Below are positions 7,778-29,131 of a DNA stretch of 64,000 bases, piece after piece (position 1 is the first letter of the stretch; each line of letters begins with the position of its first letter). Position numbers and translations under genes: made by a program. The stretch comes from an uncultured Eubacteriales bacterium (GTDB lineage Bacteria > Bacillota_I > Bacilli_A > RFN20 > CAG-288), in NCBI GenBank assembly GCA_900316035.1, contig ONBI01000001.1, positions 23,675 through 87,674 of the forward strand. Direction: 5' to 3'. The notes under the pieces are model-generated. The model ran no database searches. It saw nothing but the letters and a program-made list of their open reading frames with translations, and had not been told where the DNA came from.

Positions 7778-7931
7778 ATGGTTCCTCCTATTTGTAAGCG
7801 TTTACTTATAAGATTATTATAATCTACAACCACTTAAATGGGTTGTAGAAAATAAACACAGCCAACTCTTTCGGAGAAGATTTCATCCCGGAGAACAGAC
7901 AATATTCCTTTTTCGTCTTTTCCATTATAAG

Positions 7932-7977
7932 GCGGAAAAAGGAAAAAGAGCCGAAAGAATCCGCTTTTTCCGGCTCT
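7932..7977 (-). terminator. Intrinsic terminator after the EAL gene
   Basis: On the minus strand, agagccggaaa / tttcggctct forms a stem (one bulge) followed by ttttcctttttcc. Confidence 0.55.
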
Positions 7978-8013
7978 TGAGAGAATATTTAAAGGCGTTT
8001 TACGGAAACGATG

Positions 8014-10887: not shown

Positions 10888-11338
10888 AGTAAGCCCTCAT
10901 TCCTATCGATAGCCGGATTCATTATAGCATTCCCCAGGAAAGGCTTTCGTAGGGGAAAGAGAAGGAAAGCGCTTTGGAATCCAAAGCTTCTTACCTTATT
11001 GAAAAAAGGAAATGGTTTCACTCTTTTAGTCAATCCTTAAAGAAACCCTAAAAGAATGTTTCCTGAATTTAAAAAGGAAGCGCTTTCAAGTTTCGATAAT
11101 AGCAGAAGAGACAAAGACTCTTCTCTGCAAGTTCAGCTCCTCAAAAGGAAGAAGGAGAAAGCAAATGGCCTTTTCTCTAAATAAGCTTTCTAAGCCTAAA
11201 AAAGCCTTGCTTTTCCCCAAAAAGAACCATGAACACTATCTCAAAAAGAAAAGAATGGTTCTGCTAAAAAGAAGGAAGTCGGCAATGGACCTAAGGAAGG
11301 GAAGCTATCTTTTACTAGTTGCAAAGCATCAATTTAAC

Positions 11339-11368
11339 TTGAAAAATTTTTATCGTTTTTTTTAATGT
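11339..11368 (+). promoter_or_regulatory. Candidate sigma-A promoter TTGAAA-18-TAATGT with a T8 tract in the spacer
   Basis: ttgaaa at 11339..11344, T8 at 11356..11363, taatgt at 11363..11368. About 60 nt upstream of the lipoprotein ATG. Confidence 0.3.
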
Positions 11369-11428
11369 TAATAAGCACCTTTGTCTTTTCCACAAACAGG
11401 CTCATCAAAGTGAAAGGAGGGTCCTCTT

Positions 11429-12721
11429 ATGAAAAAGCAGTACAAAGTTTTGCCGGTTCTTTTCACGCTCCCTCTTCTCTCTCTTCTTTTCGTCTCCTGT
11501 GATGTCACTCCTTCTTCCTCTTCTTCGGAAACACCGAAAGAGACAACTTCCTCTTCTTCGGAAGGCCCCACTTCCTCGAAGATTCTTTTCCTTGGTCGGG
11601 ATGAAGAAGAGGTCTCCGCTTTTAAGAAGCTAACGGAATTAGATCAGGATTCTTCTTTAGACTTTTATTCTTATACCCAGGAAGATTCCGATCTTCTTAA
11701 TAAGATCAAGAATTTCTCCGACTATAAGCAGATCATCCTCTCTTCGTTTGATTTTAAAGGCCATATGGATTTAGTCACTCCTTTATCCACTGCCGTGAAA
11801 TCCGGTGTCTCTTTATTTACCATCGGTACTGGATATAACAGCACTACCTTTGCAAAGACTCCGGAAGAGATCGCTTCTCTTCTCCCGGTCAACTTCGCTT
11901 TCGATGCTCCTTCTTCTTATTGCTTTGTTGTCGATACCTCTTCGGCCCTGAGTACTCATATAGGAGATCTTAAGAGCCGTCTGAAGAATTTCTTTGCTAC
12001 TCTTCCTGAGGACGACAAAGTCTGCCTTATCACCAAAGAAGATACAAGCGGTTGGATGTCTATCCGAGAGAAAACGGATTGGGAAACCAAAATCGATGGT
12101 TTAACGGCTTCTTCCACTTGGTCCTTAGCTCCTTTAGCAACGGAAGCAAAAGGAAAGCTGGCTACTGTAAACGGTCAGAGCTCTTTTGTTCTCCTTTCGG
12201 CTTCTCTTCCGAGTGATCAAGATACGGCTAAGGAAGTTATCACCGGGATGAATGCAGAGAATTACCCGAAGAATTATGTCAATCTGAATAACACCGAGGA
12301 AGATCATGTCGATTATCTCCTCTCTCTGATGCACGCGACAAACACTCCCTTAGCCAGTTATTTTTGGGAGCATTTCGATGCTTCCGATACCGTCTTCCCA
12401 ATTCTCCGGTTTATCGATACTACCGACATAGGAATTTCGACAACTCTTGAAAAAGCAGAGGATCCCTCTTTAAACGGAATCACTGCTCTTTCGAATTTTG
12501 GAATCTATTCGGCTACCGCCAAAGAAGGAACCGAAGTGATTCTCTCCCAAGATGACATCCCTTGCTATGTCAAAGGCAGTGCAGAGAATGGAAAAGTCTC
12601 TAGTTTCACCGGTTCTCTTCTCGCCCGGAAAGATGGTTTCCGCCAAATTCTTTTCGATCCAGATGATTTCAATAGCGATGGTGCGCGTTTCCTTCGCCAG
12701 GCCTTAGCCGATAACCGCTAA
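11429..12721 (+). CDS. Putative lipoprotein, Ser-rich linker, function unknown
   Basis: 430-aa ORF with RBS aaaggaggg. The N-terminal sequence LLSLLFVSCDV is a lipobox. A VVDTSSA stretch weakly resembles a vWA MIDAS motif. Confidence 0.65.
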   Translation: MKKQYKVLPVLFTLPLLSLLFVSCDVTPSSSSSETPKETTSSSSEGPTSSKILFLGRDEEEVSAFKKLTELDQDSSLDFYSYTQEDSDLLNKIKNFSDYKQIILSSFDFKGHMDLVTPLSTAVKSGVSLFTIGTGYNSTTFAKTPEEIASLLPVNFAFDAPSSYCFVVDTSSALSTHIGDLKSRLKNFFATLPEDDKVCLITKEDTSGWMSIREKTDWETKIDGLTASSTWSLAPLATEAKGKLATVNGQSSFVLLSASLPSDQDTAKEVITGMNAENYPKNYVNLNNTEEDHVDYLLSLMHATNTPLASYFWEHFDASDTVFPILRFIDTTDIGISTTLEKAEDPSLNGITALSNFGIYSATAKEGTEVILSQDDIPCYVKGSAENGKVSSFTGSLLARKDGFRQILFDPDDFNSDGARFLRQALADNR

Positions 12722-12739
12722 GCTATCTCACACAAAAGG

Positions 12740-12788
12740 GTTCCTTTGGATTCCTCAAAGCCAAACGAGGAAGAAGGAACTCTTTTTT
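12740..12788 (+). terminator. Intrinsic terminator of the lipoprotein gene
   Basis: Two-part stem gttcctt/aaggaac and ttcctc/gaggaa, followed by tctttttt. Confidence 0.55.
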
Positions 12789-13069
12789 GGTGCTGGAAAC
12801 AAGGGAAAATAGGTTGTTTGTTGACTGAATTTAAACTGAAAGCATTCGGAAATCAAGCATCTTCCAACCCACCTTTTTTTGGTGCGATCCTTGATTTTTA
12901 TCACTTCTGTGCTGAACGTTTTCAATCTAAGCAGATGAAAGACCGCTTTTACATTATGATACGATGTAAATATGTACGGAATGCCTGCGCTCACAATGAC
13001 TGCTTCATCAATGATCTCCACCTAAATACTGCAGCATATCCGCCTAAGTACACAGTAAATAAAAAATAA
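12746..13069 (+). pseudogene. Remnant of an Abi_2 (AbiD/AbiF-like) abortive-infection gene, truncated at both ends
   Basis: The ORF begins at a TTG codon inside the upstream terminator and ends at the IS boundary. The core FFGAILDFYHF...CKYVRNACAHNDCFINDL resembles the conserved RNxxAH block of Abi_2 proteins, which are normally about 300 aa. Confidence 0.45.
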
Positions 13070-13091
13070 GGCGTATTTTGCAAATAGGACC
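13070..13091. repeat. Left terminal inverted repeat of IS copy A
   Basis: ggcgtattttgcaaataggacc is the exact reverse complement of 14258..14279. Confidence 0.9.
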
Positions 13092-13238
13092 CAGCCATAA
13101 CGTCATCACCTCTTTGGGTTTATCATGGATTCGCTTTTGAAAGGAAAGCGCCTAAAGGCGATTCCCGAGAGGCGATAGACGTTTAGGAACTGTGGTGGTT
13201 CCGTCTATTCCTCTCCGGAATCGACGAACCACCACCAT

Positions 13239-14234
13239 ATGACCGAAAAAGAACAAAGTTCCTCAGGGAACGGCTTTTCTGATGAGAAGCGTATTTCAGA
13301 GGACATGGTCTCCGATTTCCTCGGCAGCTGGTATGTGACCAAACACTGGCGTCCCGGCAGAAAAGAGATCGAGTTCGTCAACTCGCTGAAGCCGAAATCC
13401 TGTCCCTGCTGCGGGAGCAAGGATATCGTCAAAAAGGGAAAACAGAAGAAGACGGGACTCCAGAGATGGAAATGCAAATCCTGCGGAAAGAGGTTCACCC
13501 CTCTGACAGGGACCGTCTTCGATTCGCGGAAGATCCCCATCGCCGATTGGATCGAATATCTCATCCATCTGTTTGAATACCATTCCGTATCCTCCGCAGC
13601 CTATGACAACAGAAACGCCGATTCCACGGGCTATTACTGGCTGAAGAAGGTGTTTTTCGTGCTGAAGGGATATCAGGACGACATCGTCCTCAAAAGCAAG
13701 GTATGGATAGACGAGACCTATGTTTCGATATGGAAAACCGCAAGGACAAAGAAGGGAACAAACGAACTCCGGGGACTTTCCAGGAACCAGTGCTGCATCT
13801 GCACCGGGACGGACGGCAAAAAGACCTTCCTCATCTTCTGCGGAATGGGAAAACCCAGTTCACCTAAGGCGTGGAGATCCTATTCCCCGCACATACCGAA
13901 GGAAGCCACCCTGATACACGACGGAGAGCGTAGCCACAACATCCTCATCGAAAAGCTCGCGCTGAAGTCGGAGGTGCATTCGACGGAAGAGACCAAAGGG
14001 ATGCCGGACGGGGTCAATCCGATGAACGAGATCAACACGGTCCACAGATATCTGAAAAGGTTCCTCAGCCGTCACGACGGTTTCGACACCGATGAACTTC
14101 AGGACTGGCTCAACCTCTTCTGTTTCCTGTGGAACGAAGGGCCGAACGACTACGACAGGGTCACGGCTTTCATCGACAGAGCCGTCAGAAAAAGAGCACT
14201 TCTGAGATATTCTGAATGGGCAGACTCCGAATAA
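13239..14234 (+). CDS. IS1595-family transposase (Zn-ribbon + DDE ISXO2-like)
   Basis: 331-aa ORF. N-terminal CPCCGSKDIVKKGKQKKTGLQRWKCKSCGKRFTPLTGTVF zinc ribbon, followed by the WIDETY... catalytic region. Confidence 0.88.
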   Translation: MTEKEQSSSGNGFSDEKRISEDMVSDFLGSWYVTKHWRPGRKEIEFVNSLKPKSCPCCGSKDIVKKGKQKKTGLQRWKCKSCGKRFTPLTGTVFDSRKIPIADWIEYLIHLFEYHSVSSAAYDNRNADSTGYYWLKKVFFVLKGYQDDIVLKSKVWIDETYVSIWKTARTKKGTNELRGLSRNQCCICTGTDGKKTFLIFCGMGKPSSPKAWRSYSPHIPKEATLIHDGERSHNILIEKLALKSEVHSTEETKGMPDGVNPMNEINTVHRYLKRFLSRHDGFDTDELQDWLNLFCFLWNEGPNDYDRVTAFIDRAVRKRALLRYSEWADSE

Positions 14235-14257
14235 GGCGAAAGCTGCCGACTTTTTCA

Positions 14258-14279
14258 GGTCCTATTTGCAAAATACGCC
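14258..14279. repeat. Right terminal inverted repeat of IS copy A
   Basis: ggtcctatttgcaaaatacgcc is the reverse complement of 13070..13091. Confidence 0.9.
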
Positions 14280-14571
14280 TTTTTAAATAAAATCATACAT
14301 TCAGATAATCTTGTTAAATTTACAAGAAAAAGCAAAAAGCTAAATTTAAATTTGAGAGTGTTTTCTTAATCATTACCGAATTTCATGCGGTTATCGGTTG
14401 TTTCCCTAACACCTTGACAAAAATACAAGAATCAAACTTATGCATTACTCCGCTAGATGTTTCTTAAAGTTTCAAACGAACGTTTAATAATCTATCAACC
14501 ATCAATAATACTTCCTCCTCCTACTACATACCCTTTGCTTCGCATATATTGCGAAAAAGATCAGCCTTTTT

Positions 14572-14579
14572 TTTCGATT
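14572..14579. repeat. Target-site duplication (left) of IS copy B
   Basis: TTTCGATT is repeated exactly at 15792..15799, immediately outside the inverted repeats. Confidence 0.75.
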
Positions 14580-15791
14580 AAAGTCTCGATTTGCACAGTG
14601 GGTCTGTCTCTATAGGGGATGATAAGGTATAATCGAGGCGTTCACGAAAGGGAACAAAGAGGCTTCCGCGAACCGATGAACGCTTTGTGGACTTGGCGGT
14701 CCGCTTCGTCGGTTCCCGGAAACCCGACCGCCAAGAAAAGTGAGTGAGGAAGAAACAGATAGCTCCGCAGAGGAGCCGGATTTGCCTGAGGAAGAAAAAC
14801 TCCTCAGGGAACTTTTGGACGAGACCGACGAGGAATGGTACAAGGCCAAGCACAGACGGATGTCGGATCCGGAAGTGAAGGCCATCAATGCGATACCCAT
14901 CTCCACCTGTCCCTGGTGTGAGAGCCAGTTCGTCAGGGAGGCAAAAGGCTATACGTCTGCCGGAATCAGGAGATATGTCTGCCTTGACTGCAAGAAGACG
15001 TTCGCGCCTCTGACCAAGACGCTGATGGAGGGCCACAAGATACCGGTGTCGGAATGGCTCGAATTCCTTCTACATCTTTTCGAGTTCCATTCCACAGCAA
15101 CAAGCGCAGGAGACAACAGAAACGCCACAACTACGGGAAGATATTGGCGGTCTTGCTCTTCATAGCCCTCAGCGGTTATCAGGACGGCATCATGCTTTCG
15201 GGAAGGGTATACATCGATGAGACCTGCTTTCCCGTCTATCCCTCCGACTTTGTCCACAACACCGACGGCAGCAGGCTCAGAGGACTTTCAAGGAACAGCA
15301 TCAGCGTCTCCTGCGACACCGACGGCGTTCACAAGATACTGATAGCCACCGGCAGAGGAAAGCCGGATGCCGAAAGGACATGGCTTGCCTACGGAAGCCA
15401 CATCCTCCCCGAGAGCACGATAGTCCATGACGGCGAAAACAGCCACTCGGTTCTTCTGAAGAGAATACCCGGACTGAGAGAGGAAATCCATACCACGGAG
15501 GAAACCCGCGGCCTTCCGGACAGGGAAAATCCGATGGATCCGATCAACGGCTTCCACCGTCTTGCCAAGCTGTTCATGAGGGCCCATGGGGGCCTATTCG
15601 AGGGAGCATATCCAGGACTGGCTGAACGTGTTCTCGATGATGTCGAACCCTCCCTTTGACAGGAAAGCAAAGATAAGGGAGCTTCTGAAGAGGGTGATGG
15701 AGATGAGAATCCGGCTGAAATACCGGGATTTTTACAAAAAGAAGCACCTATAGTGCCTATATTCCAAACCCACTGTGCAAATCGAGACTTT
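14580..15791 (+). mobile_element. IS1595-family insertion sequence, copy B (different sequence from copy A, transposase disrupted)
   Basis: 23-bp inverted repeats AAAGTCTCGATTTGCACAGTGGG at 14580..14602 and 15769..15791, flanked by an 8-bp direct repeat. Confidence 0.85.
14740..15753 (+). pseudogene. IS1595-family transposase with two frameshifts
   Basis: Homology to the copy A transposase continues across three frame segments: CPWCESQF...GRYW to about 15148, then AVLLFIALSGYQDG...RAHGG to about 15595, then EHIQDWLNVFSMM...KKKHL with stop at 15751..15753. Confidence 0.8.
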
Positions 15792-15799
15792 TTTCGATT
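15792..15799. repeat. Target-site duplication (right) of IS copy B
   Basis: TTTCGATT, identical to 14572..14579. Confidence 0.75.
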
Positions 15800-16012
15800 T
15801 CTAAGAGTCACCTACCCTTTTTGTTCCGTCTTGAAAACAAGCTTTTCCATTGTTTACTTAGCAAAAGCAATTGCAAATGTTAGCAATCATCGGAGAAGAG
15901 ACCATTGCTTGCACTATTCTCATTTTATTCGAACAATCGATTATTCGAATCCTCTGTTATTCGTGCAATCGATAAGGAGTATCCCCGTCTTTTTCCTCCC
16001 CGGTTTCTTCCT

Positions 16013-16046
16013 TGAAAAAGAGCTTAGCCACGTTTAGCTAAGCTCT
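16013..16046 (-). terminator. Intrinsic terminator immediately after the SMC-like ATPase gene
   Basis: The minus strand reads TAA gaaat g-agagcttagc-taaacgtg-gctaagctct-ttttcaag. This is a 10-bp stem and a T-run starting 7 nt after the stop. Confidence 0.65.
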
Positions 16047-16052: not shown

Positions 16053-19000
16053 TTATTCCTTCTCTTCTTTCTGCTCTTCTTTTTCCTCAATCACTTCGGA
16101 AGGAGTCAAAGAGGTCTTCTCTTCTTCTTTTTTCTTTCTCTTATCCTCGTAGACATCGAGATAGGAGCGATTGGCTTTCGAGTCGTGGATCGTGACCAAG
16201 ATGAGATCGACATAAGAGACAAGGTCTCTTAACTTCTCACTCGGCGTCGAAATGATCGCCTGAAGTCCGAACTGACGGAGAAGATCCGTCGACTGTTTGA
16301 TACGTCCGGCATCCATCTTGGAGAATGCTTCGTCGAAGATGACAAAGCGGAGCGTATTGTTATCGGCAGGGTTATTGACTCTACAAAGCTGCGCAAACGA
16401 AGCGAAGATAGAAATATAGAACGGCGTCTGGTTCTCACCGCCGGACTGGGCGTTGAAGGATCTTCCTAAGGAGATCGTTTCACTGTGGTCTCCCATCGGA
16501 CGGGTGACCAGTAAATCGAAGACGATATAGGTCGTGTAAGTCGTGAAGAGTTCGACGTTCCGTAAGACCTGTTCTCTCTGTTCACCGGAAGCCGAAGTCG
16601 AAGAGGAGATAAGGCCGAAAAGATCATCCATCGTCGCTTTATACTTCTCCATGAAGAGGCTTTCGGCATCTCCGCTTCTTAAAAGCAGAGGATCCATGAT
16701 CATGTTGTAGTATTCGAGATAATCCTTGTTCGGAGAGACCTTGAACTGATAGGTATCTCTTCCGAAATGGGAATCCTCCAAAGCTTTGTTGAGCTCCTCG
16801 ATCTGGGCGTTGACGGCTTCGATCGCGGTGCGGAGCTTATAGATGAAGTCATCCTTGAACTCGCGGACGGATTCATCGTGGGCTTTGACGATCTTCTCTT
16901 CGTAGTCGGGGAGAAGAACCTTCGAGATATTCTCTAACTCATGATCGAACTCGTAGTTGGACTTTTCGTTCTGGACATCGTAGTTGAGATGATACTGGGC
17001 GCAGTAATCGCTGCGTAACTTCAGTAAGGCTGCCCGATCGTGATTGGTCTTGTTCTGCGCCTGAATCGCTTCACGATAGGCTTCACTACGGATCTGGGCT
17101 AAAGTCATACCCTGATCGTCGAGAAGCTTTGAGAAGAAAGGTTCATACTCCTCGTTGACGACCTTTTCATCGAAGCGGTCAAGATCCGCTTTATCGCTCT
17201 GTAAGGTTCCGGAATAGGAAGGAATCTCTTCCGCGTTGAGACGGTTGGTATCGGCAAGGATCTGACCTCTTTCGGTGAGTAGTTCGTTTCTTTTTTCGGT
17301 GAGAGTTGCGATATTGTTATGGATTTCCTTGATCTTCTCTTCGACAAGAGACATATCGCCTTTGGTGAGAGAGACCATCTCCTGTTCAGTAGCGGTGATC
17401 TGCTTTTCTAAGTCACCTAAAGCCTCTTTCCGCTTGAGATCGTTCTCATAGGTTTCAAGTTCCTGCTCCGACATCAGAGGTAAAGAAAGAAGAGTCTCTA
17501 ACTTATTGAGAGCTTCGCTGAGAAGCGAATATCTCCGGTTCATATTCTGATAATCGGCGCTGGAGACGGCTTTCGCATTGCTGGAAACCTGAGTGCCTAA
17601 GAAGAAGACACGGGCATTGGCTTTATTAAGATACCAAGTCGCATAACCTCTATATCCGGTGCAATCGGAAAGAAGACCGGAGCCAGAGGCTCTTGCTTCT
17701 TCGAAAGTAGAGCACTTCTTGATTCTTCCTAAGAGGTAATCGGTATAGGCTCTTGCACCTTTATCGTCGGTATCGATCAGATTGGCGATCGAATCGGGAT
17801 TTGCCTGGATGTGATTCGCCAATAGTCTTTCGGTATCCACAAGGGAGACATGATAGTAACGATTGGAATCCGCAAGCTCCTTTAAGATGCGGTTAGCTTC
17901 TTCGTAGTAACGCGGATTGACGAAGAAATTGAATTTCTGGTTATAAAGAACCGCTTCGAGAGCTAGGGTCCATTCCGGATCATTGACATCGACAAGATCG
18001 CAATAGATATGGACATAGGCATCCGAATGACGGGCTTTTAAGGAAGTCTCTAAGGCATTCTTGATGCTGAGATATAAAGGGCCGAGCTTATCAAAAGGTT
18101 TCTTACCCTGATTGACGGCACTTAAATCACTCTGCAGAGTCTGTAACTGCTCCGAGACCTGATAGAACTCGTGGTTGAGAAGAGTCTTCACGGAGGTAGC
18201 CTGACTTCTTAACGCTTCCATATCGGTACGGAAAGAAGCAAGGGCGGCAAAGTCTAACTCGTTCTCTTTTAAAGATGCCAGTAAGGAAGAAGCTTCGTTA
18301 GAGACATCCTGCGCAAGATCAACTAAGGCATCGAAGCTCTCCTTGACGGAGGAACCGAGTTTCGAAGTATCGAAATCCTGATAATAGCGGCTGAAGTCGC
18401 TTCCGGCCTTGGCATAGGCATTGGCGTAATTGGTAAGAAGCGTCAATACGTTATTGATCTGCAACTGGATCGAAGCGGTCTGTTTGAGAAGATTATCCTT
18501 CTTCAAGGAAAGCTTCTCCGTCAAGGAATAATTCCCGGACTGAAGTTTCTTGGCGTTATAGGAATTGAGGTCCGAGTTGAGATCTTCGAGCTGTGCATCG
18601 AGTCTTGCGATTTCGTCGGAGATCGCGGTGAGTCTTTCGTTATCTTTCGCAAGACGCTCTTTTGCGCTATCGAGCTTCTTCTTCGCTTCTTCGTAGGAGA
18701 CACGGGAGTTAACGTAATTGAGCATATCGATACGCTTATCGAAAGAACGTAACTCCTCATAGGTCTCTTTGATCTTGTTGAGGGATTCGACCTTGAGTTT
18801 GAGGTTCTTGGCCTGATCCTCAAGGATCTTATACTGCTCGATATTCTTCTGCATCGGGGTGATATCGACATTCAGGTCCGCATCGCAGATATACTCCGTG
18901 ATGAAGGAGGAGATATTCGAAATCGGAGCAAAAGAGACTGCCTTCTTAAACAGGGAGAAATACTTATCCGGAAGGTTACCGAAAGCTTCCTTGGTGAAAA

Positions 19001-19553
19001 GCTGATATTCGGCATCGGTATCGAAGAAACGGAAATGGTTGACCTTATAGTTTTCTCTGACCCAAGAAGAAAGCTCCTTATACATCATCGGACGGACTTT
19101 CTTGCGGTTGGTTTCGGTATCGGAATTGGAGAAACCGTTTTCCGGGAAAGCGGAATCGAGATAGAAGTAGTGTTTATCGATACGGTCGGAAGCATCGACA
19201 TCGAAGCAGACACCTAGAGTGAATGGTCTTTTTTCGACATCGTCAAACAGCTCCATCGCGATATACGAAGTGAAAACACCGGTTCTTAAGGTGATGGTGC
19301 TACCATCGTCCTTGACACCGGTCTGGCCGCGGAGATAGGAAAGAAGCGTACGTCCGCTTCTTCCCTTTTCGTTAGCAGCCTTGTTGAAGTTATCCGGACG
19401 GGTCGACCCTAGTATCAGAATCTGCATCGCATCGATGATGGTCGATTTTCCGGTGCCGTTAGGACCGGTTAAGAACGTGATGTTTTTGATATCGGTAGTG
19501 GTGTTGGTGAAATAATGCCAGTTGATGAGACGGAGTTTCTGGATGGTTTTCAT
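16053..19553 (-). CDS. MukB/MksB-like SMC ATPase (JetC-like)
   Basis: 1166-aa ORF. N-terminal head KLRLINWHYF...FLTGPNGTGKSTIIDAMQ (Walker A), a long coiled-coil middle, QSGGENQ signature and LRFVIFDEAFSKMD Walker B at the C-terminus. Confidence 0.8.
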   Translation of the reverse strand: MKTIQKLRLINWHYFTNTTTDIKNITFLTGPNGTGKSTIIDAMQILILGSTRPDNFNKAANEKGRSGRTLLSYLRGQTGVKDDGSTITLRTGVFTSYIAMELFDDVEKRPFTLGVCFDVDASDRIDKHYFYLDSAFPENGFSNSDTETNRKKVRPMMYKELSSWVRENYKVNHFRFFDTDAEYQLFTKEAFGNLPDKYFSLFKKAVSFAPISNISSFITEYICDADLNVDITPMQKNIEQYKILEDQAKNLKLKVESLNKIKETYEELRSFDKRIDMLNYVNSRVSYEEAKKKLDSAKERLAKDNERLTAISDEIARLDAQLEDLNSDLNSYNAKKLQSGNYSLTEKLSLKKDNLLKQTASIQLQINNVLTLLTNYANAYAKAGSDFSRYYQDFDTSKLGSSVKESFDALVDLAQDVSNEASSLLASLKENELDFAALASFRTDMEALRSQATSVKTLLNHEFYQVSEQLQTLQSDLSAVNQGKKPFDKLGPLYLSIKNALETSLKARHSDAYVHIYCDLVDVNDPEWTLALEAVLYNQKFNFFVNPRYYEEANRILKELADSNRYYHVSLVDTERLLANHIQANPDSIANLIDTDDKGARAYTDYLLGRIKKCSTFEEARASGSGLLSDCTGYRGYATWYLNKANARVFFLGTQVSSNAKAVSSADYQNMNRRYSLLSEALNKLETLLSLPLMSEQELETYENDLKRKEALGDLEKQITATEQEMVSLTKGDMSLVEEKIKEIHNNIATLTEKRNELLTERGQILADTNRLNAEEIPSYSGTLQSDKADLDRFDEKVVNEEYEPFFSKLLDDQGMTLAQIRSEAYREAIQAQNKTNHDRAALLKLRSDYCAQYHLNYDVQNEKSNYEFDHELENISKVLLPDYEEKIVKAHDESVREFKDDFIYKLRTAIEAVNAQIEELNKALEDSHFGRDTYQFKVSPNKDYLEYYNMIMDPLLLRSGDAESLFMEKYKATMDDLFGLISSSTSASGEQREQVLRNVELFTTYTTYIVFDLLVTRPMGDHSETISLGRSFNAQSGGENQTPFYISIFASFAQLCRVNNPADNNTLRFVIFDEAFSKMDAGRIKQSTDLLRQFGLQAIISTPSEKLRDLVSYVDLILVTIHDSKANRSYLDVYEDKRKKKEEEKTSLTPSEVIEEKEEQKEEKE

Positions 19554-20245
19554 TCCTTATGCCCTCCTAAAGAATCGACCGGAATATCGCCGGGCTGTGC
19601 CGTAGTAGAAGGCGTATCAAAAAGCGAAGAAGAGGAAGTCTCTTCCTGAGGCTTTGTCAGCAACGCATAGAGAGCGTTGAGCTTTTCTGCCGAGATCACA
19701 TAGCGGATGGTGGGGAGAATGAAGAAAGAGTAGGAAGGATCTCCGTAGCTGTTATTGGCCTTGGTGACGATATTGAAAGCATCCAAGGTGCGTAAGGAAG
19801 AAGCGATCGTAGAGGAAGAAAGACGTTTCGAGAGATTCGATAAGCCCATCTCCTGGACAAGCTGGTTCATCTGACCGGAAGTCATGAGGACTTCGGTTTC
19901 CTGCGGAGCCTTTTCGATCTGTCCTTCATAGTAGGAGCGAAGAGCATAGACGACTAAAGTGGTCGAAGGTTCGATACGGAAGTGGTTTCTTTCCGCTCCC
20001 GAAGTGACGAAGATAACACCGTCTTCATCGTTTTTCGAAAGCTGCATATCCATGTAGGAGAGATAATCCTCGAAAGTCGAGGTATAACGTTCGATAAAGA
20101 GATAATCCGGATTGGCGCGGAACATCTTCGACTTGCGGTCATAGACCTTTCGGACGATAAAACACTCGTAGAGAAGGTCGTTTAAGACTTCCTTGAACTG
20201 AGTTTTATCGGAACGGGACATCTTTTCATAATCTTCGGTGAACAT
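19550..20245 (-). CDS. MksE/JetB-like small acidic subunit (DUF4194-like)
   Basis: 231-aa ORF. ATGA overlap with the ATPase gene. Size, acidity and position match the middle gene of mksFEB/jetABC operons. Confidence 0.55.
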   Translation of the reverse strand: MFTEDYEKMSRSDKTQFKEVLNDLLYECFIVRKVYDRKSKMFRANPDYLFIERYTSTFEDYLSYMDMQLSKNDEDGVIFVTSGAERNHFRIEPSTTLVVYALRSYYEGQIEKAPQETEVLMTSGQMNQLVQEMGLSNLSKRLSSSTIASSLRTLDAFNIVTKANNSYGDPSYSFFILPTIRYVISAEKLNALYALLTKPQEETSSSSLFDTPSTTAQPGDIPVDSLGGHKE

Positions 20246-21742
20246 TTACCTCACCCCCTTCTTAGCAGGTATTCTTGTGAATTTATACTGCGGCATATAG
20301 AAGCCGGAATATTCGACTCGGTCACTTACCTTCTCGGCTTTGAACGGTATCAGTCCGGTAACGGCCTTCAAAGTTCCCAGAATCATCAAGACGAGATCAT
20401 CGTCGCTGTTGAGCGGAATGTCGGTGTTATACATCTCGTCTTTTCCTTGCATCCACTTTTCGATGAACTGGCTGATCGCTTCATCAGAGAAGCGGTCAAG
20501 CTCATTATCGAGAAGCGAAGAGAAGCTATCGGCGCTATCGTCCGGCCCGAAATCATCGTCCATCGGAAGCGGTTCGATATCGACATCGACACTGCCGCGT
20601 TTAAAGGGCATCGCCATCGAAGCCGAATCGAGATAACCTTGACGGAAGAGTGAGATCGAATCCGTCGCTTTTCCGACCAATGGCATCTCGTCATAGTTGA
20701 GAGCCGGGTTATTCTTGATCTCGGTAGCTAAACCTAAGATGATGCGGTCGATCTTGCCTTTGACGGTCTTATCGGTCGAGGAGAGGTAATTGACCTTCTT
20801 CTGAACCGCTTCGGTATAGTTTGCATTCGCGACATCGATCTCCGAGAAGGCGGAGGAGAGACGGGAGAAGATATCGATGACCGAGGAGATGAGCTTGATG
20901 ATCTCATTAGTGAGATCGGCAGCGCTCTTTCCGCGGTTGATGCTTTCCGCTTTCGCTTCCTTGACTAAGAGAGTGACAATGCGCTCGTTCTTGATCCAGC
21001 GGTTGAGGATCGAGATCGTCGGTTGCGCATAAAGGCCTAAGGAATCAAAGGTCTTCATCGGATGGTAATACTTATCCGCGACATCTTCGCGGTATTCATC
21101 GAAGTGCTGTTTCAAAGCGACATTCGGATCGAGAACATGGGTGAGGCGGTTACCGAAGACGCAGATCTGCTGTCTTAAAAGAGTGACCGACATCTCCAGA
21201 GAGTCGGCGTTCTGTTTGGCGTTGAGAAGAGAACGGTACATATAATCGTCCTCTTTTTCATCTTCCATCTTCAGTTCCGCATAGGTCTGATGGACTAAAG
21301 GGAGGTAAGATCCGACATCGCTTGTCAGATCGTTGATGAGAGATAGGAAACGGATTGCATAAGCAGGGATATAGATAAATTCGATACCGGTCTTCGGGTC
21401 TTTGGAGAGGATAAACCAGCCGCATTTTGAGAGTTTGCGGATGACATAGCTGATTTTATAGGTAAGGACCGAAGAAGCATCCTCGGTATTGACGAAGTTA
21501 TCGGTATGGACTTCTTCCTCTTCGTCCTTATCGTCGAGACGGTCGGATTCAATGGAGAAAAGTTCCATCATCTCCGCTCCCTGGGAACGGAGAAAAGCAG
21601 CATAATCGGAGCGTTTGATATCGGTCCGATAAAGCTCAAGCATGTGATAGAGAGAAACTAAGGCGAACGCGTAAACGGCCTTATATTTCCGTGAAAGAGG
21701 AGAGAACAGTTCCTCGGGGATTTTATCAAATAATCGGTTCAT
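20246..21742 (-). CDS. MksF/JetA-like kleisin-type subunit (candidate)
   Basis: The ORF is open from GTG at 21769. The ATG at 21742 (MNRLFDK...) has an aaagg RBS. It encodes 498 aa and its stop abuts the next start (TAAATG). The assignment rests mainly on size and order. Confidence 0.5.
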   Translation of the reverse strand: MNRLFDKIPEELFSPLSRKYKAVYAFALVSLYHMLELYRTDIKRSDYAAFLRSQGAEMMELFSIESDRLDDKDEEEEVHTDNFVNTEDASSVLTYKISYVIRKLSKCGWFILSKDPKTGIEFIYIPAYAIRFLSLINDLTSDVGSYLPLVHQTYAELKMEDEKEDDYMYRSLLNAKQNADSLEMSVTLLRQQICVFGNRLTHVLDPNVALKQHFDEYREDVADKYYHPMKTFDSLGLYAQPTISILNRWIKNERIVTLLVKEAKAESINRGKSAADLTNEIIKLISSVIDIFSRLSSAFSEIDVANANYTEAVQKKVNYLSSTDKTVKGKIDRIILGLATEIKNNPALNYDEMPLVGKATDSISLFRQGYLDSASMAMPFKRGSVDVDIEPLPMDDDFGPDDSADSFSSLLDNELDRFSDEAISQFIEKWMQGKDEMYNTDIPLNSDDDLVLMILGTLKAVTGLIPFKAEKVSDRVEYSGFYMPQYKFTRIPAKKGVR

Positions 21743-21966
21743 TCCAAGCACCTTTACCTCTTGTTGCACAGAGGGACAGAATAACTTTCTAAATTATAAG
21801 CGGAACAAAAAAGGGTTACAACTGAAAAAGTAGAAAAATCTCACGCTTTTTTGAGGTTGATGAAGAAACAACTTTTCCCACTTATTCGGTGGTTGGAACA
21901 TAAACTGACACTCTTTTTTACGAAAATCAGAGACAACCCTCGCGCGCACGTTTTATAATACCGCAT

Positions 21967-22905
21967 ATGGATTGTGCTGCTACCCATTATCAAGTCCTCA
22001 CCAGAGGCTTAGGAAAGAAAAAAGAACGAGCGTTTGAGATTGATGTCCTCCGTGGCATCCCCATTTTCATCGTGGTCCTCTATCATTTCTGTTGGAGCTT
22101 CTCTTTTATGCCTTCTTTTTTCTCAAATTCGGCTACGATCCTAAAGAACAATCTGACTCTCTATGACTTCCTATCCTTCATCACTTCGATTCTCACTAAC
22201 CGACTGATTCACACTTATTTTGTCCCCTTAGTCGGAGGGCTATTCATCTTCATCTGCGGAGTATCCAGCGTCTTCTCAAGAAACAATCTGAGAAGAGGTT
22301 TCCTTCTTTTCTTAGCGGCATCGATCGTTACCCTTGCTACCTTCCTAGCCGGAGAAGTCGTCCATGAGAACTATCTCATCACGTTCGGTGTTCTTCACCT
22401 GATGGCTTTCTGCGTTCTTTTCTATGCCTTCTTTGAAAAGTTGAGCGAAGAGTTGTTCCGGAAGAAGATATCTCCGGAAATCCTGGCTCTCTTCTCTTTT
22501 GCTATCTTCCTGTTCTCTTTGATTACCTTGAGCGGATACGATCCTTTTAGGAATACTTTCTTTGAACCATGGCCTATCAAAGTGATTCACGATACTTTCT
22601 TTGACCGCTATCAAAAAGAACCTCTCACTTTCCTTACCGAACCGATAGGATTCGTCGCAGGGGATATGGATTGGTGGCCGATTTTCCCTTATCTCGGGGT
22701 ATTTCTTTTAGGAGTTGCCAATGGAAAGTGGGTCTATGAACCGAGAGGAAACAGAACCATCTTCCCGAAAGCAAAACATCTGAGAAAGATTCTTTCTCCT
22801 CTCTGTTTCATCGGTTCCCATACCATCTATATCTATATTCTTCATCAACCCATTATTATTCTTGTCCTCTTCTTTGTTTTTCTCGGATTAGGTTTCCGTA
22901 TATAA
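21967..22905 (+). CDS. Multi-pass membrane acyltransferase-like protein (DUF1624/HGSNAT-like)
   Basis: 312-aa ORF. N-terminal FEIDVLRGIPIFIVVLYHF motif and about 9 hydrophobic segments. Confidence 0.6.
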   Translation: MDCAATHYQVLTRGLGKKKERAFEIDVLRGIPIFIVVLYHFCWSFSFMPSFFSNSATILKNNLTLYDFLSFITSILTNRLIHTYFVPLVGGLFIFICGVSSVFSRNNLRRGFLLFLAASIVTLATFLAGEVVHENYLITFGVLHLMAFCVLFYAFFEKLSEELFRKKISPEILALFSFAIFLFSLITLSGYDPFRNTFFEPWPIKVIHDTFFDRYQKEPLTFLTEPIGFVAGDMDWWPIFPYLGVFLLGVANGKWVYEPRGNRTIFPKAKHLRKILSPLCFIGSHTIYIYILHQPIIILVLFFVFLGLGFRI

Positions 22906-22934
22906 TCTCCCTTGTCGGAAGAAAGGCTAACACT

Positions 22935-24545
22935 ATGGAACATAGCACACTCTATCAGGATGTCGAGCGCAATAGAAATAGGAAACAGGTCGCTTTATAT
23001 TTCCGTCACGAGAAGATCCGTTACCCGGAATTGCTCCGCCGTATCGATACCATGGCAGTACTCCTCAACAAGAGAGTAGGTATCCATAAAAACGATGTCG
23101 TCACTCTTCTTTCCCCGAATGTCCCGGAGACCGTCGTCACTTTCTATGCTTTGAATAAAATCGGCGCTATCACCTGTATCCTTCACCCTCTTCTTCCTAT
23201 CGCTGCCTTAGAGCGCACACTGAAAGAGACTTCTTCCTCTTATCTTCTTTTACTTGATGCGAGATACCCGGAATACGAGTCTCTTTTAAAAGATAACCCT
23301 GCTGTCAAAACCTATTTCCTCTCGGCAATACCGGATTTAAACGGGATTGAAAGAAGCGTCTACCGCAGGAAGAACAAAGAACTCGAAACCAAGATTCTTC
23401 CTTCCCAGCGCTTAGATTCCACCGTCAAGAGGAAAGAGAGCGAAAGAAATTCTCTCCCCATCAATACCGATGACATGAAACCTTCCGTCTATCTTCTCTC
23501 CGGGGGAACCACCGGAAGAAGCAAAACCATCGTCTTAAACGACCACGCTCTCCGTTTCCCCGGAAATCACGCCGAAGAGATCTTAGGAAAAGAACTCGGA
23601 AACGATAACTCCATGATCGGACTTCTTCCTCTTTTCCACGGTTTCGGTTTAGCGATGGGTATCCATGCTCCTCTGATGAAAGGAACCTCCTGCTTCCTTA
23701 TGCTCCGTTACGATGGAAAGACCATCGTCAAAGGAATCAAGAAAAAGAGAATCACGCTTCTTATCACGGTTCCTTATATGGCAAAGAAGCTTCTTGCCAC
23801 CAAAGGTTTCCAAGGAAAGAAGCTTCAGAATCTTTATATGACCTTCGTCGGTGCCGATAAACCTTCGCCGAACCTCTTCAAAGAATTCAATACAAGGATG
23901 GAAAAAGCCGGTTCCATCAACCGTCTTTATGAAGGTTACGGATTGACCGAAACCGTCACCGTCACTTTCGTAAACACCTTTAAGAACCATAAACAGGGAA
24001 CGGTCGGAAGACCTTTGAGCGGTGTCAAAGTGAAGATCGTCGACCCAGAGGATTATTCCCGAGTTCTACCTGCCGGAGAAGATGGTATCATCCTCATCAG
24101 CGGAGACTGTAACTGCCTCGGTTATCTTAATGCAAGAGCCGAGGAACAGCCTTTCTACACCGATAGCGATGGCATACAGTGGGTGAAAAGCGGAGATATC
24201 GGACACTTGGATGAAGACGGCTATCTCGTCTTCAAAAACCGTGAGAAGGATTCTTTCAAGATCGCCGGCTACAATGTCTTCCCGAGCGATGTCGAAGCTT
24301 TAGCCGAAGAAGTCGAAGGCGTCAATGCTTCGGCGGCTTTATATATCGAAGGCAAACATCCTTATATCCATCTCTATATCGAAAGCCATGACGGAGAAGA
24401 TTATTCTCTGGAGCAGAAAGTTCTTTCCCATCTCAAAGAGAATCTTCTTCCTTATTCGATCCCGGAGAAGATCACCGTCCTTCCCCGTTTCCCCCGTACC
24501 GCCATCGGTAAGATCGACCGGAAGAGTCTTATTCATCTGCAATAA
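22935..24545 (+). CDS. AMP-forming acyl-CoA/acyl-carrier ligase (ANL superfamily)
   Basis: 536-aa ORF with YLLSGGTTGRSK, EGYGLTE and GDIGHLDEDGYLVFKNREKD motifs. Confidence 0.8.
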   Translation: MEHSTLYQDVERNRNRKQVALYFRHEKIRYPELLRRIDTMAVLLNKRVGIHKNDVVTLLSPNVPETVVTFYALNKIGAITCILHPLLPIAALERTLKETSSSYLLLLDARYPEYESLLKDNPAVKTYFLSAIPDLNGIERSVYRRKNKELETKILPSQRLDSTVKRKESERNSLPINTDDMKPSVYLLSGGTTGRSKTIVLNDHALRFPGNHAEEILGKELGNDNSMIGLLPLFHGFGLAMGIHAPLMKGTSCFLMLRYDGKTIVKGIKKKRITLLITVPYMAKKLLATKGFQGKKLQNLYMTFVGADKPSPNLFKEFNTRMEKAGSINRLYEGYGLTETVTVTFVNTFKNHKQGTVGRPLSGVKVKIVDPEDYSRVLPAGEDGIILISGDCNCLGYLNARAEEQPFYTDSDGIQWVKSGDIGHLDEDGYLVFKNREKDSFKIAGYNVFPSDVEALAEEVEGVNASAALYIEGKHPYIHLYIESHDGEDYSLEQKVLSHLKENLLPYSIPEKITVLPRFPRTAIGKIDRKSLIHLQ

Positions 24546-24899: not shown

Positions 24900-25718
24900 T
24901 CAGCTTTTCTTCTCGGGTTTCGTATAGAGAAGAACTTTCCTGGTCTTCTTTTCGGAATACTTGTTGTGACTCATCACCAGAGCGAAGTCCTGTTTCTTCT
25001 CTTCGTCTACCATCTCCCGGACTCTTCTTTTTACTTCCTCAGCGATATCTTTGGTCGTCAGGGAAGCATAGTCCTCGGGAAGCAAAGGTTTTCCATAGGT
25101 TATCTGAATCGGATAACGGTGATAGTGATAATGAGGATCTAAGACTCTGGCGGGAAGATAAAGAGCAAAAGGAACAATCGGAAGAGAAGCGCGGGTTGCG
25201 ATCTGGAAAGCACCCGGTTTAAAGGTACCTAGAGCATAATCCGGTCCTTTGCTTCTTGTTCCTTCGGGGAAGATGATATAACTGAGTTCTGGATTCTCTT
25301 TGAGTTGATCGACGATCTTTTTAAAGACCGTCAGTTCACTTCTAAGATCTTCTCTATCTAAGAAGGCTCCTTCCATACATTCCTGCGCTCTTCCGATGAT
25401 GAAGAACTTCCTGATCTCTTTCTTCGCTAGGAAAGTGACAAGACGGTCGGAGACGGTAAGCATCGCAAGAGGATCGTAATTGGAGGTGTGGTTTCCATAG
25501 TAAACCACCTGTCCTTCTGGGACATTCTCCTGACCTTTGACAAGCAGGTCGGCGCGGAGTGCCCCTTTTGCCAGTTTCCTAAGAAGATTCTTAAAATAGG
25601 CTTCTCTTACTTCTAAAGGGTATTTCTTCTTATCTTTGAGGAAACGGCTGAGCTTATGGTTAGCCGCTAAAACCTGTATTCCCCCTTCTAACCCTAAACG
25701 GAGATACTTCATACTCAT
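24900..25718 (-). CDS. plsC: 1-acyl-sn-glycerol-3-phosphate acyltransferase
   Basis: 272-aa ORF with NHTSNYDP (HX4D) and FPEGTRS motifs. Confidence 0.8.
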   Translation of the reverse strand: MSMKYLRLGLEGGIQVLAANHKLSRFLKDKKKYPLEVREAYFKNLLRKLAKGALRADLLVKGQENVPEGQVVYYGNHTSNYDPLAMLTVSDRLVTFLAKKEIRKFFIIGRAQECMEGAFLDREDLRSELTVFKKIVDQLKENPELSYIIFPEGTRSKGPDYALGTFKPGAFQIATRASLPIVPFALYLPARVLDPHYHYHRYPIQITYGKPLLPEDYASLTTKDIAEEVKRRVREMVDEEKKQDFALVMSHNKYSEKKTRKVLLYTKPEKKS

Positions 25719-27886
25719 TCTTTACGGGGAGCCGTCTTATAGCTCTGATCCTCTTTCTTCTCGATGAAGATGTTACAGCTTAAGGCGTTGATGATACCGA
25801 GATGGATATAGAAAGGCGAATTGCGGAAGAAGCCGGTCTCATTGAAGACTAAGGAAGCATAGTCATCGAAATCGATCATGAAGGACATCTTCGAAGGATT
25901 GAAGACGACATAGATATTGGCTTTCTTCAGATCGTAGGTGATCTTCAGAGCACCGTCGGGAAGATCCTCGAAAGTGACATGGTGGATCAGATCTTCGTAT
26001 TCGTCTCCTGCCAGTTCGATGAACTTCTTCTTGAAGGCGATCGCATCCTGGAAATAATGGAAAAGATCCTGTTTCTTCGCTAAGAGAGAATAATCGAAAC
26101 CGTTGATCTTATCTCCCGCATTATAGGAGTTTCCGATTCCCTGTTTACTCGCGCCGATCTCTTCTCCGGCATGGAAATAAGGAATACCGCAGGACATCAG
26201 GGTAGCGATGATATTGAGCTTGATGATCTTTTCCCTCTCGGCTTCACTATCCTCCGGACAGGCTGCTTTGATCTTATCGTAAAGCGTGTGGTTATCGTGG
26301 CATTCGACATAGTTGATCGATTGCAGTGGAGACTTAAACAGAGGAGCAAAAGAAAGCGGAACCGAAGAACCGAGATAGACGTGCTTAAAGCCGTCCCGAT
26401 AGGCGCTATCGCCTAAAAGATAGCCGGGTACACCTAATTCATTATCGTTGGATTTTCCCTTGACGACATCGCGGAAGCGGTCGTTGAAGAAAGCAGCAAA
26501 AGGCATCTTATCGGCATTGTAATAGCTTGCTTTCTTATCGCCCGGAAGAGCCGTCCATAGATCCCATCCTTCTCCATAATAGAGGAGTTCCGGTTTCTTC
26601 TTGGAGCAGAGCTCATAGCCTTGTTTTACGGTATCGATATCTAAGATTCCCATCAAGTCGAAACGGAAACCATCCGCGCCATAGAAATCCATCAGGTGAA
26701 GAAGGGAATCGAGAATGAGTTTTCTAGCCATGTAGTGGGTGGATTCAAAATCGTTTCCGCAACCGGTGCCGTTGGAGTTAGAGCCATCGGCATTCTTACG
26801 GAAATAATACCCCGGGCAAAGGATATAGAGAGGGTTGAAATAATCCGAGAACATATGGTTATAGACAACATCGAAGGTGACTCTCATCCCATGCTGATGA
26901 AGCTTCGAAACCAAGGTTCTCAGTTCCTTGACACGGGAATAAGCGGAGTTCGGATCTAAGGCATAGCTTCCTTCCGGAGCCATATAGGAAAGAGGATCGT
27001 AGCCCCAGTTATAGGAAGAAGAAGGATTGTCTTCGTCGATCGTCTGGAAATCGAGAACCGGCTGAAGCTGGATATGGGTTACTCCTAAAGAAGAAAGATA
27101 GTCAAGTCCTACCGGCATTCCTTCTTTCGACTTCAGTCCTTCCTCCGAAAGTGCCGCATACGTCCCTTTATTCTTCAGCGAGGTAAGCGAAGTCATGTCG
27201 CGGACATCGCATTCATAGATAATCGCTTCATCGCGGTGCTTAAAAGGCGGTAAGGCTTCTTCATGGAGCGGAATCGCATGCACTTTCTCGGGATCGATAA
27301 CAAAGGAGTGACGGGCGTTAGCATCCAAAGAGAACGAGTAAGGATCAAAACAGGTATAACCGAGACCGAAAAGAGTCACGACATAGACGTATCTTGCTTC
27401 ATCGAAGTCACCTTCCAAGGTGATCTCGAAGATGCCATCCGAGAAATCGTGATTCATCACATAGGATTCGAGATTCTCGTTTCCTTTGCGTTTCAGTTTC
27501 AGGGTGACATTGGTCGCAAAAGGAGCAAAGACGCGGAAAGTCGTCTTCTCTTTGGTGTAGATAGCCCCCAGTTCACCATCGTAACGATACTGCTTTTCGA
27601 ATTCTTCGCTCTGGCTTAAGAAAGAGATATCGATCGGGATGAAGAAGTTCGATTCGGTCACGATGTGGTAAGAATGGCCGGGGATGAAATGGAAATCCTC
27701 ATAGAAGAAAGTGTAGATGAAAGAGGAGTTCGACTCCGAAACCGAGATAGGTTTCAAAGTCAGAACCGGTTTCTCATCGGCATAGAAACGGAAGACTTTC
27801 AAAGCCGATGGGGAAGCCTGTTTACTGGCGACGACTTCGATCGTCGAGGCGCTTTTGGCGCTGGCAAAAAAAGGAACTTTGATCAT
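25715..27886 (-). CDS. pulA: Type I pullulanase / glycogen debranching enzyme (GH13)
   Basis: 723-aa ORF with YNWGYDP, DVVYNHM, GFRFDLMG, YGEGWD and YVECHDN blocks. Confidence 0.88.
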   Translation of the reverse strand: MIKVPFFASAKSASTIEVVASKQASPSALKVFRFYADEKPVLTLKPISVSESNSSFIYTFFYEDFHFIPGHSYHIVTESNFFIPIDISFLSQSEEFEKQYRYDGELGAIYTKEKTTFRVFAPFATNVTLKLKRKGNENLESYVMNHDFSDGIFEITLEGDFDEARYVYVVTLFGLGYTCFDPYSFSLDANARHSFVIDPEKVHAIPLHEEALPPFKHRDEAIIYECDVRDMTSLTSLKNKGTYAALSEEGLKSKEGMPVGLDYLSSLGVTHIQLQPVLDFQTIDEDNPSSSYNWGYDPLSYMAPEGSYALDPNSAYSRVKELRTLVSKLHQHGMRVTFDVVYNHMFSDYFNPLYILCPGYYFRKNADGSNSNGTGCGNDFESTHYMARKLILDSLLHLMDFYGADGFRFDLMGILDIDTVKQGYELCSKKKPELLYYGEGWDLWTALPGDKKASYYNADKMPFAAFFNDRFRDVVKGKSNDNELGVPGYLLGDSAYRDGFKHVYLGSSVPLSFAPLFKSPLQSINYVECHDNHTLYDKIKAACPEDSEAEREKIIKLNIIATLMSCGIPYFHAGEEIGASKQGIGNSYNAGDKINGFDYSLLAKKQDLFHYFQDAIAFKKKFIELAGDEYEDLIHHVTFEDLPDGALKITYDLKKANIYVVFNPSKMSFMIDFDDYASLVFNETGFFRNSPFYIHLGIINALSCNIFIEKKEDQSYKTAPRKE

Positions 27887-29130: not shown

Positions 29131-29131
29131 A

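Follow-up and report, generated by a model that had tools for sequence, protein, structure and literature searches.

The stretch of DNA analysed here (64,000 nucleotides, hereafter the window; contig ONBI01000001.1, positions 23,675 to 87,674) comes from an uncultured Eubacteriales bacterium of the CAG-288 lineage and carries a three-gene operon, jetABC, on its minus strand. The locus is a genuine type I Wadjet-derived JetABC operon without a nuclease gene. Across uncultured Bacilli, more than 60 species-level genomes carry the operon at one chromosomal site, and the comparison of these genomes indicates that jetD, the gene of the Toprim nuclease, was lost once. Among the roles considered for the remaining complex, we lean towards that of an MksBEF-like auxiliary condensin, in which JetABC would extrude loops without a nuclease and would be under selection to act on the host chromosome.

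Operon structure and protein identity

The operon and the signals around it are as follows (positions are those of the window; aa, amino acids; SMC, structural maintenance of chromosomes; ABC, ATP-binding cassette):

20246-21742, minus strand: jetA, kleisin subunit, 498 aa from the ATG at 21742
19550-20245, minus strand: jetB, KITE subunit, 231 aa, acidic (isoelectric point, pI, 4.96)
16053-19553, minus strand: jetC, SMC-like ABC ATPase, 1166 aa
21793-21821, minus strand: promoter-like TTGTAA-17 nt-TATAAT upstream of jetA (consensus scan, 10/12 matches)
16019-16046, strand unassigned: hairpin with a 10-bp stem directly past the jetC stop (read from sequence)

The three genes are co-oriented in the order jetA-jetB-jetC (kleisin, KITE, ATPase) and are translationally coupled: the TAA of jetA is followed directly by the ATG of jetB (20248-20243), and jetB and jetC share an ATGA overlap (19553-19550). 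Purine-rich ribosome-binding sites lie 5' of all three starts, with GAGGTAAAGG ahead of the jetA ATG. This ATG is the start chosen by gene callers on the source contig; the listing of open reading frames (ORFs) also gives an alternative GTG start at 21769, which would add nine codons (507 aa). The number of promoter-like sites in the region was not above the shuffled expectation, and the site upstream of jetA is a pattern match only. The hairpin past jetC is followed by TTTT only on the operon (minus) strand, while the terminator scan reports the plus strand alone; a bidirectional terminator is possible, the hairpin being a candidate for it.

All three proteins are full length. JetA matched Pfam PF18982 (JetA, 1.2e-65; DUF5716 in PADLOC labelling) and PADLOC JetA1 (1.5e-85, nearly the full model covered), JetB matched Pfam DUF4194 (PF13835, 2.8e-16) and PADLOC JetB1 (1.7e-64), and JetC matched Pfam AAA_29 (7e-18), SbcC_Walker_B (1.6e-18) and, weakly, SMC_hinge, together with PADLOC JetC1 (6.3e-290). 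The top PADLOC models of the three proteins were all of type I Wadjet, with nearly full-length alignments. JetC is laid out as Walker A (GPNGTGKST, residues 30-38), a hinge region (approximately residues 519-622), the signature (QSGGENQ, 1036-1042) and Walker B (VIFDEAFSKMD, 1071-1081); Walker A, signature and Walker B are intact here and in 57/57 aligned homologues. By sequence, the only solved relatives of JetC were the JetC proteins of E. coli GF4-3 (8as8, 9qxt) and P. aeruginosa PA14 (8dk1, 8dk2), and the sequence-level PDB search gave no match for JetA or JetB.

JetC scored 49.8 bits against the Smc equivalog TIGR02168, whose cut-off is 567.35, and its Pfam match to the N-terminal model of MukB was marginal (48 residues, 26.3 bits); none of the operon proteins matched the MukF or MukE families in Pfam. 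The locus lies outside MukBEF and outside Smc-ScpAB. JetD was searched for and not found (next section), and the locus is therefore not Wadjet by the four-gene definition.

A preliminary description of this DNA, made from the sequence alone, had reported three co-oriented, coupled genes for 498, 231 and 1166 aa, and the ORFs and junctions match it. It had also noticed the JetC motifs, the acidic MksE/JetB-like character of the 231-aa protein and the kleisin-like first protein, in agreement with the family matches and the pI. The Pfam families that it named were right for DUF4194 and AAA_29/SbcC Walker B but wrong for the kleisin, which matches PF18982 and not DUF3375. It had named the lack of JetA/JetB-type hits as an outcome that would speak against it; in the Pfam and PADLOC searches, both proteins matched strongly. 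The terminator that it called strong exists as a hairpin, but "strong" was somewhat overstated, because just four T's trail the hairpin on the operon strand.

Absence of the JetD nuclease

JetC relatives were collected as 58 loci drawn from species-representative genomes. In ten distant loci (JetC identity 25-31%; Clostridia, Desulfotomaculia) the ORF right after jetC is JetD1, with PADLOC E-values of 1e-87 to 1e-137 for the ORFs submitted. A JetD profile made of seven real JetD proteins from distant loci was then used in six-frame searches with no filters (--max). This profile recovered the ten distant loci at 1e-127 to 1e-179 and found nothing in the six frames of the 64-kb window (best E = 7.9), of the other 48 JetC-retrieved loci or of 79 glgD-retrieved loci. 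The ORFs neighbouring the operon gave no Pfam or PADLOC match to JetD. No jetD remnant was detected in the window, and the clade genomes likewise have none over a distance of about 10 kb from jetABC.

In every JetD-plus relative recovered, jetD lies immediately 3' of jetC. A scan of genome contigs with the JetD alignment listed at least 600 matches, and none of the best 80 came from an assembly bearing the jetABC of the clade. No recurrent nuclease adjoins jetABC across the more than 60 genomes. In JetC itself there is no domain or large insertion able to stand in for JetD, only a clade-specific insertion of 8 residues. The absence of a fourth, JetD/MksG-like ORF on either side, as claimed in the preliminary description, is borne out by these searches. 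That description had also proposed a comparison of synteny in related genomes, in which an adjacent jetD would have pointed to a decayed canonical Wadjet; no jetD adjoins jetC in more than 60 relatives. It had left three options: a Wadjet derivative without its nuclease, an MksBEF condensin and a variant with a different effector. A Wadjet derivative that lost its nuclease and resembles an MksBEF-like condensin fits best of them.

Two published features of the JetD interaction were considered and set aside. The "IFDR" motif of JetB (PMC10586767), a possible JetD-docking marker, was unrecognisable in the JetB N-termini of JetD-plus and JetD-less loci alike. The "larynx" interface between the aCAP domain of JetD and JetC (bioRxiv 10.1101/2023.11.03.565488) could not be mapped to reliable residues, as the proteins are too divergent and the source describes it at figure level only.

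In an Oscillospiraceae metagenome-assembled genome (MAG) that is among the closest JetD-plus outgroups (L042:9022-10421), JetD was found in two overlapping-frame fragments covering profile positions 4-349 and 308-416. Either an ongoing frameshift or an assembly mistake accounts for this.

Conserved chromosomal site

The genes that flank the operon in the window are:

25715-27886, minus strand: glgB-like gene, upstream anchor (Pfam, synteny)
24900-25718, minus strand: plsC-like acyltransferase, upstream anchor (Pfam, synteny)
21967-24545, plus strand: divergent HGSNAT-like/AMP-binding gene pair, present between the plsC-like gene and jetA in some genomes
6650-7777, minus strand: glgC, downstream anchor; NTP_transferase and hexapeptide domains (Pfam, glgC/glgD)
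5511-6629, minus strand: glgD, downstream anchor
4104-5510, minus strand: glgA, downstream anchor; Glyco_transf_5 (Pfam)

The order glgB-plsC-(variable)-jetABC-(variable)-glgCDA is fixed at one chromosomal site in the uncultured Bacilli counted above (more than 60 species-level genomes). Of the first 58 loci, about 30 showed it, including some with JetC identity as low as 34-36%. A scan with a single GlgD sequence, which is independent of the jet genes, retrieved 12 loci, and jetC was next door in 11/11 informative ones. The scan was extended with a GlgD alignment to the best 80 of 209 relatives: jetABC was directly upstream of glgC in approximately 50 of these 80 loci, and about 20 of the positive loci brought further species into the comparison, with JetC as little as about 36% identical. 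The species added include 'Clostridium sp. CAG:288', 'Coprobacillus sp. CAG:826' and one represented by a 1.33-Mb contig.

The jet-negative GlgD loci were mostly the most distant ones (GlgD identity 38-43%; Thomasclavelia, Coprobacillaceae, Erysipelotrichaceae MAGs and others). They were rejected as "empty sites", their upstream gene set being wholly different. In L199-L220 (positions about 1-8800), six co-oriented conserved ORFs of approximately 445, 348, 255, 300, 228 and 228 aa precede glgC and could be a transporter operon. L162, by contrast, is an exception inside the jetD-less clade: no jet gene was seen there up to 8.9 kb from glgC.

Further upstream of glgB and on the same strand, the window contains ftsK/spoIIIE and two conserved ORFs of 384 and 415 aa (27883-33320), also in conserved synteny. 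Neither ORF has a confident family match, the 415-aa one being weakly YfmH-like (E = 3.5e-5). A DNA translocase (ftsK/spoIIIE) and an SMC-like operon are thereby kept within about 10 kb of one another. Elsewhere the window holds galT, galK, gltX, recX, tsaB/tsaD, an aminoacyl-tRNA synthetase and a type III glutamine synthetase; a 1453-aa ORF is polC according to the preliminary description only. Sugar and uronate metabolism genes lie on the low-coordinate side of the source contig; for the other side, no identical recorded protein was found. PADLOC detected no defence protein among the tested neighbours, its sole match being that of the glycogen branching enzyme to a candidate model labelled GlgB.

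In 'Clostridium sp. CAG:568' (L027), where jetABC does not lie beside the glg genes, a 404-aa DEAD/ResIII-type helicase is encoded immediately 3' of jetC (13508-14722). Five loci that belong to this lineage by synteny, with JetC identity of 65-74% (L007, L018, L020, L039 and L012), were deposited as Alistipes onderdonkii, Bacteroides uniformis, Prevotellaceae, Paludibacteraceae or Oscillospiraceae; these names probably reflect mislabelled or contaminated bins.

Phylogeny, co-divergence and selection

In the JetC tree, the loci that lack jetD and are linked to glg cluster as a single clade (bootstrap 100), which groups with the JetD-plus loci L041, L042 and L049 (bootstrap 100). PADLOC confirmed JetD1 in the outgroups. 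Since the jetD-less clade is monophyletic and its nearest outgroups are JetD-plus, the tree indicates that jetD was lost once, at the base of the clade.

Pairwise distances of JetABC and GlgCDA were strongly correlated in 28 genomes (Mantel r = 0.96, p = 0.001), and the evolutionary rate of JetC was about 0.9x that of GlgA. The ratio of nonsynonymous to synonymous substitution rates (dN/dS) of jetA, jetB and jetC was 0.007-0.06 in the eight closest jetD-less pairs. In close pairs with unsaturated dS it was about 0.01-0.04, indistinguishable from that of glgC, glgD and glgA (0.01-0.06). In the two most diverged pairs, which are saturated, the ratio was approximately 0.07-0.18 for both gene sets. 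Two JetD-plus pairs gave values of about 0.1; both belong to one lineage and the contrast was not relied on. Defence systems are normally patchy and horizontally transferred, and co-divergence with housekeeping neighbours is not usual for them. Judged from these sequence comparisons, jetABC is a vertically inherited set under housekeeping-grade constraint, neither a decaying remnant nor a mobile defence cassette.

A second, unrelated jetD-less jetABC group was observed in L046 (3745-10143) and L048 (10001-16731), one of them titled Candidatus Izemoplasmatales. Its JetC has about 1080 aa and its context is also of the housekeeping kind: jetABC is followed by a conserved ORF of approximately 155 aa, an RNA methyltransferase (PF04452 + PUA, rsmE-type) and a radical-SAM enzyme (UPF0004 + Radical_SAM, MiaB/MtaB-like). 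Because of this group, jetD loss may have been repeated in Bacillota.

Insertion block between jetC and glgC

In the window, jetC and glgC are separated by a block that is not part of the jet system (IS, insertion sequence):

7778-16018: insertion block, about 8.3 kb, between jetC and glgC
14836-15732: frameshifted IS1595-family transposase remnant, 41-43% identical to the intact copy
13065-14284: intact IS1595-family element, with the transposase at 13239-14234 and 27-bp inverted repeats at 13065-91 and 14258-84
12746-13069: 107-aa ORF, Abi_2-like C-terminal fragment (sub-threshold, E = 0.017)
11429-12721, plus strand: 430-aa protein without assigned family
8014-10887, minus strand: EAL/GGDEF gene, 957 aa

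Read from jetC, the order is IS1595 remnant, intact IS1595 element, Abi_2-like ORF, 430-aa protein and EAL/GGDEF gene. The block is absent from the relatives, which have jetC approximately 100-300 bp from glgC or unrelated inserts (GH3, GH30, a BspA-type leucine-rich repeat protein, a Schlafen/AlbA_2 protein). The spot varies in its insert content from genome to genome, which marks the block of the window as a local insertion. A replacement effector in the gap was considered and rejected, as the inserted genes are mutually unrelated. The GC content at third codon positions (GC3) was 0.44-0.45 in the EAL/GGDEF and 430-aa genes and 0.68 in the IS, compared to 0.57-0.60 in jetABC and 0.55-0.61 in the glg genes; the low GC3 suggests that the 430-aa and GGDEF/EAL genes were recently acquired. 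The 430-aa protein gave no match in Pfam, NCBIfam or PADLOC and has no homologue in the 58 loci. The left repeat of the intact IS1595 element abuts the 107-aa ORF, which suggests, from the position of the repeat, that the element truncated an Abi-like gene.

Some claims of the preliminary description about this part of the window did not hold. Two IS1595-family elements were found in the block where it had counted three IS relics. Its Abi remnant was seen as a fragment, but only as the sub-threshold C-terminal match listed above. It had taken the neighbours to imply accessory or defence status, whereas the IS and Abi sequences are confined to the genome-specific insertion, and the conserved neighbours are ftsK, glgB, the plsC-like gene and glgC/D/A. 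Neither a conserved defence or mobile neighbourhood nor a patchy distribution, the marks of a defence island, was observed.

Proposed function and alternatives

Type I JetABC is an SMC motor dimer joined via the kleisin. Its ATP hydrolysis and DNA loop extrusion do not depend on JetD, whereas plasmids are cleaved only if both JetD and ATP are present; on its own, JetABC extrudes and compacts a plasmid before stalling on it (PMC10889018). In M. smegmatis, MksB, encoded in an operon with mksEF, follows replication forks, and MksBEF usually coexists with Smc-ScpAB (PMC11329512). Searches of the literature for natural jetD-less or mksG-less operons turned up none, only in-vitro "without JetD" experiments, and nothing relevant was found on genome features of RFN20/Enterosoma.

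We propose that a type I Wadjet ancestor lost the Toprim nuclease gene jetD once, before the diversification of a large clade of uncultured Bacilli from gut and rumen; Candidatus Enterosoma, 'Clostridium sp. CAG:288' and 'Coprobacillus sp. CAG:826' are among its members. JetABC would then load on DNA and extrude loops with no cutting, because the published JetABC extrudes alone and its cleavage needs JetD. As the main cellular DNA is the chromosome, the complex would have an MksBEF/MukBEF-like role in chromosome folding and segregation. For an action on the chromosome, the fixed core-genome site, the co-divergence with housekeeping genes and the native composition are indirect support. The complex would be a domesticated defence system, probably working alongside Smc-ScpAB.

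Several points weigh against this proposal. That the operon matters is clear from its strong purifying selection and vertical descent, but these do not reveal its substrate. Canonical JetABCD is not known to act on chromosomes (PMC10586767), the organisms that carry this jetABC are uncultured, and an unlinked jetD or another nuclease partner may lie elsewhere in the genome. Moreover, jetABC is apart from the glg genes in L027, L029 and L034, and in L039 (10001-13409; same contig as L173) jetC is split into two ORFs (507 and 623 aa), the locus being typical in other respects. No other clade member was seen with a broken jetC, and the split may reflect either a pseudogene or an error of sequencing. 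The split jetC and the members without glg linkage mean that the arrangement is not absolutely fixed. In L034 and L177, both of assembly CACYDF01 (RUG11836), jetABC and glgCDA are on separate contigs and no jet gene lies within 3.2 kb upstream of glgC; the jet-glg linkage is therefore broken in at least some members of the clade.

The complex might still confer immunity without a nuclease. JetABC would sense small circular DNA by complete loop extrusion, and would then compact, silence or mis-segregate it in the manner of Smc5/6, which restricts episomes without a dedicated nuclease (PMC10586767). The stalling of JetABC alone on the plasmid that it has extruded and compacted (PMC10889018) speaks for this, and the strong conservation is compatible with a fixed immune function. 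However, no natural nuclease-free Wadjet restriction was found in the literature, and the core-genome behaviour is more simply that of a housekeeping system; we regard such immunity as unlikely, although worth keeping in mind. A slightly lower probability is given to an anti-plasmid Wadjet that still cuts, with an unlinked jetD or some other, recruited nuclease acting in trans. All three proteins score best on the defence models of type I Wadjet, and the at least 600 matches listed by the JetD scan leave room for an unlinked gene. An effector swap is also conceivable from a distant jetD-less locus of Desulfotruncus alcoholivorax (L047), where a putative restriction endonuclease of the Uma2 family (13388-14047; PF05685, 1.7e-38) lies directly 3' of jetC. 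The relatives L044 and L054 do not have it, and it could be a swapped effector or a coincidence. Against a nuclease in trans stand the place of jetD immediately after jetC in every JetD-plus relative recovered, the failure of the best 80 JetD matches to fall in any assembly with the jetABC of the clade, the lack of a recurrent nuclease beside the operon and the co-divergence with housekeeping neighbours (Mantel r = 0.96), which is not usual for defence systems.

The surroundings of the operon in this one genome could suggest two further explanations. The Abi_2-like fragment and the IS elements nearby would suit accessory cargo of a defence island, but these features are limited to the genome-specific insertion, whose GC3 deviates, the tested neighbours gave PADLOC no defence protein apart from the GlgB-labelled match, and the conserved context is made of ftsK, the glg genes and plsC, with synteny in more than 60 genomes. 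We consider this explanation very improbable. The two IS1595-family elements directly downstream of jetC could likewise have deleted jetD and left a decaying remnant of a canonical Wadjet. By contrast, the IS-free relatives, with a jetC-glgC gap of 100-300 bp, are likewise without jetD, the three ORFs are intact with conserved motifs, dN/dS is low in the closest pairs and the loss of jetD is older than the divergence to 34% JetC identity. The JetD search, the synteny and the dN/dS results refute a decaying remnant, to which we give hardly any credence.

A chromosomal role alongside Smc-ScpAB, as proposed above, can be set against a bolder variant, in which the domesticated JetABC replaced Smc-ScpAB as the main or sole chromosomal condensin of this Bacilli lineage. 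A phmmer search for Smc, ScpA and ScpB with approximate B. subtilis probes found none in the window or in approximately 140 loci, all of which represent one chromosomal region. For MukBEF, a Wadjet-like ancestry has been proposed, and it replaced Smc-ScpAB in its lineage (PMC10586767). A replacement in these Bacilli seems to us rather improbable; if true, Bacillota would have repeated independently what MukBEF is proposed to have done in Enterobacteria, with the JetD-bearing sister group still extant.

Comparison with known systems

Reviews speculate that MksBEF and MukBEF arose from Wadjet-like defence systems through nuclease loss, and the known examples of both are old and far diverged from any nuclease-bearing relative. 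The clade described here offers a natural experiment, in which type I Wadjet is recognisable, a single loss of jetD was followed by lineage-wide fixation (more than 60 species-level genomes) and JetD-bearing sister loci are extant. It allows one to ask which sequence changes accompany the switch from plasmid cutting to (presumed) chromosome folding, and it provides compact candidate operons for heterologous tests. Defence-system finders that require four genes skip such loci, and a quick inspection of the neighbours may mislabel them as defence remnants.

Compared to type I Wadjet (JetABCD/MksBEFG/EptABCD; E. coli GF4-3, P. aeruginosa PA14, C. glutamicum), the operon is alike in its JetA, JetB and JetC families (1e-64 to 1e-290), in the kleisin-KITE-ATPase order, in translational coupling and in the nearest solved structures of JetC. 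It differs in that no JetD/MksG Toprim nuclease was found at this locus or at the loci of its clade, and in its fixed core-genome position and vertical inheritance, which are not those of a mobile defence locus. With MukBEF of Enterobacteria it shares the kleisin/KITE/SMC-like composition of the complex, but the match to the MukB N-terminal model is marginal and the MukF and MukE families are not matched. With Smc-ScpAB, the canonical condensin of Bacillota, it shares the head-coiled coil-hinge-coiled coil-head ATPase; JetC is far below the TIGR02168 cut-off, however, and its partners are JetA and JetB instead of ScpA and ScpB.

In gene content the operon resembles MksBEF of P. aeruginosa and MksB-EF of M. 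smegmatis, which are also three-gene operons without the G/D nuclease and whose functional model we adopted. Like these, the locus is a stably kept kleisin/KITE/SMC-like three-gene operon, jetD-less throughout its clade and under purifying selection. Unlike these, it would stem from an independent loss in Bacillota, and its nearest relatives are JetD-plus type I systems of Clostridia, whose JetC is about 30% identical; it is unlikely to be orthologous to the MksBEF operons of Pseudomonas or Mycobacterium. By architecture the locus belongs among the nuclease-less MksBEF-type systems, as a new and independently derived case with type I ancestry that is fixed in the core genome of a Bacillota lineage.

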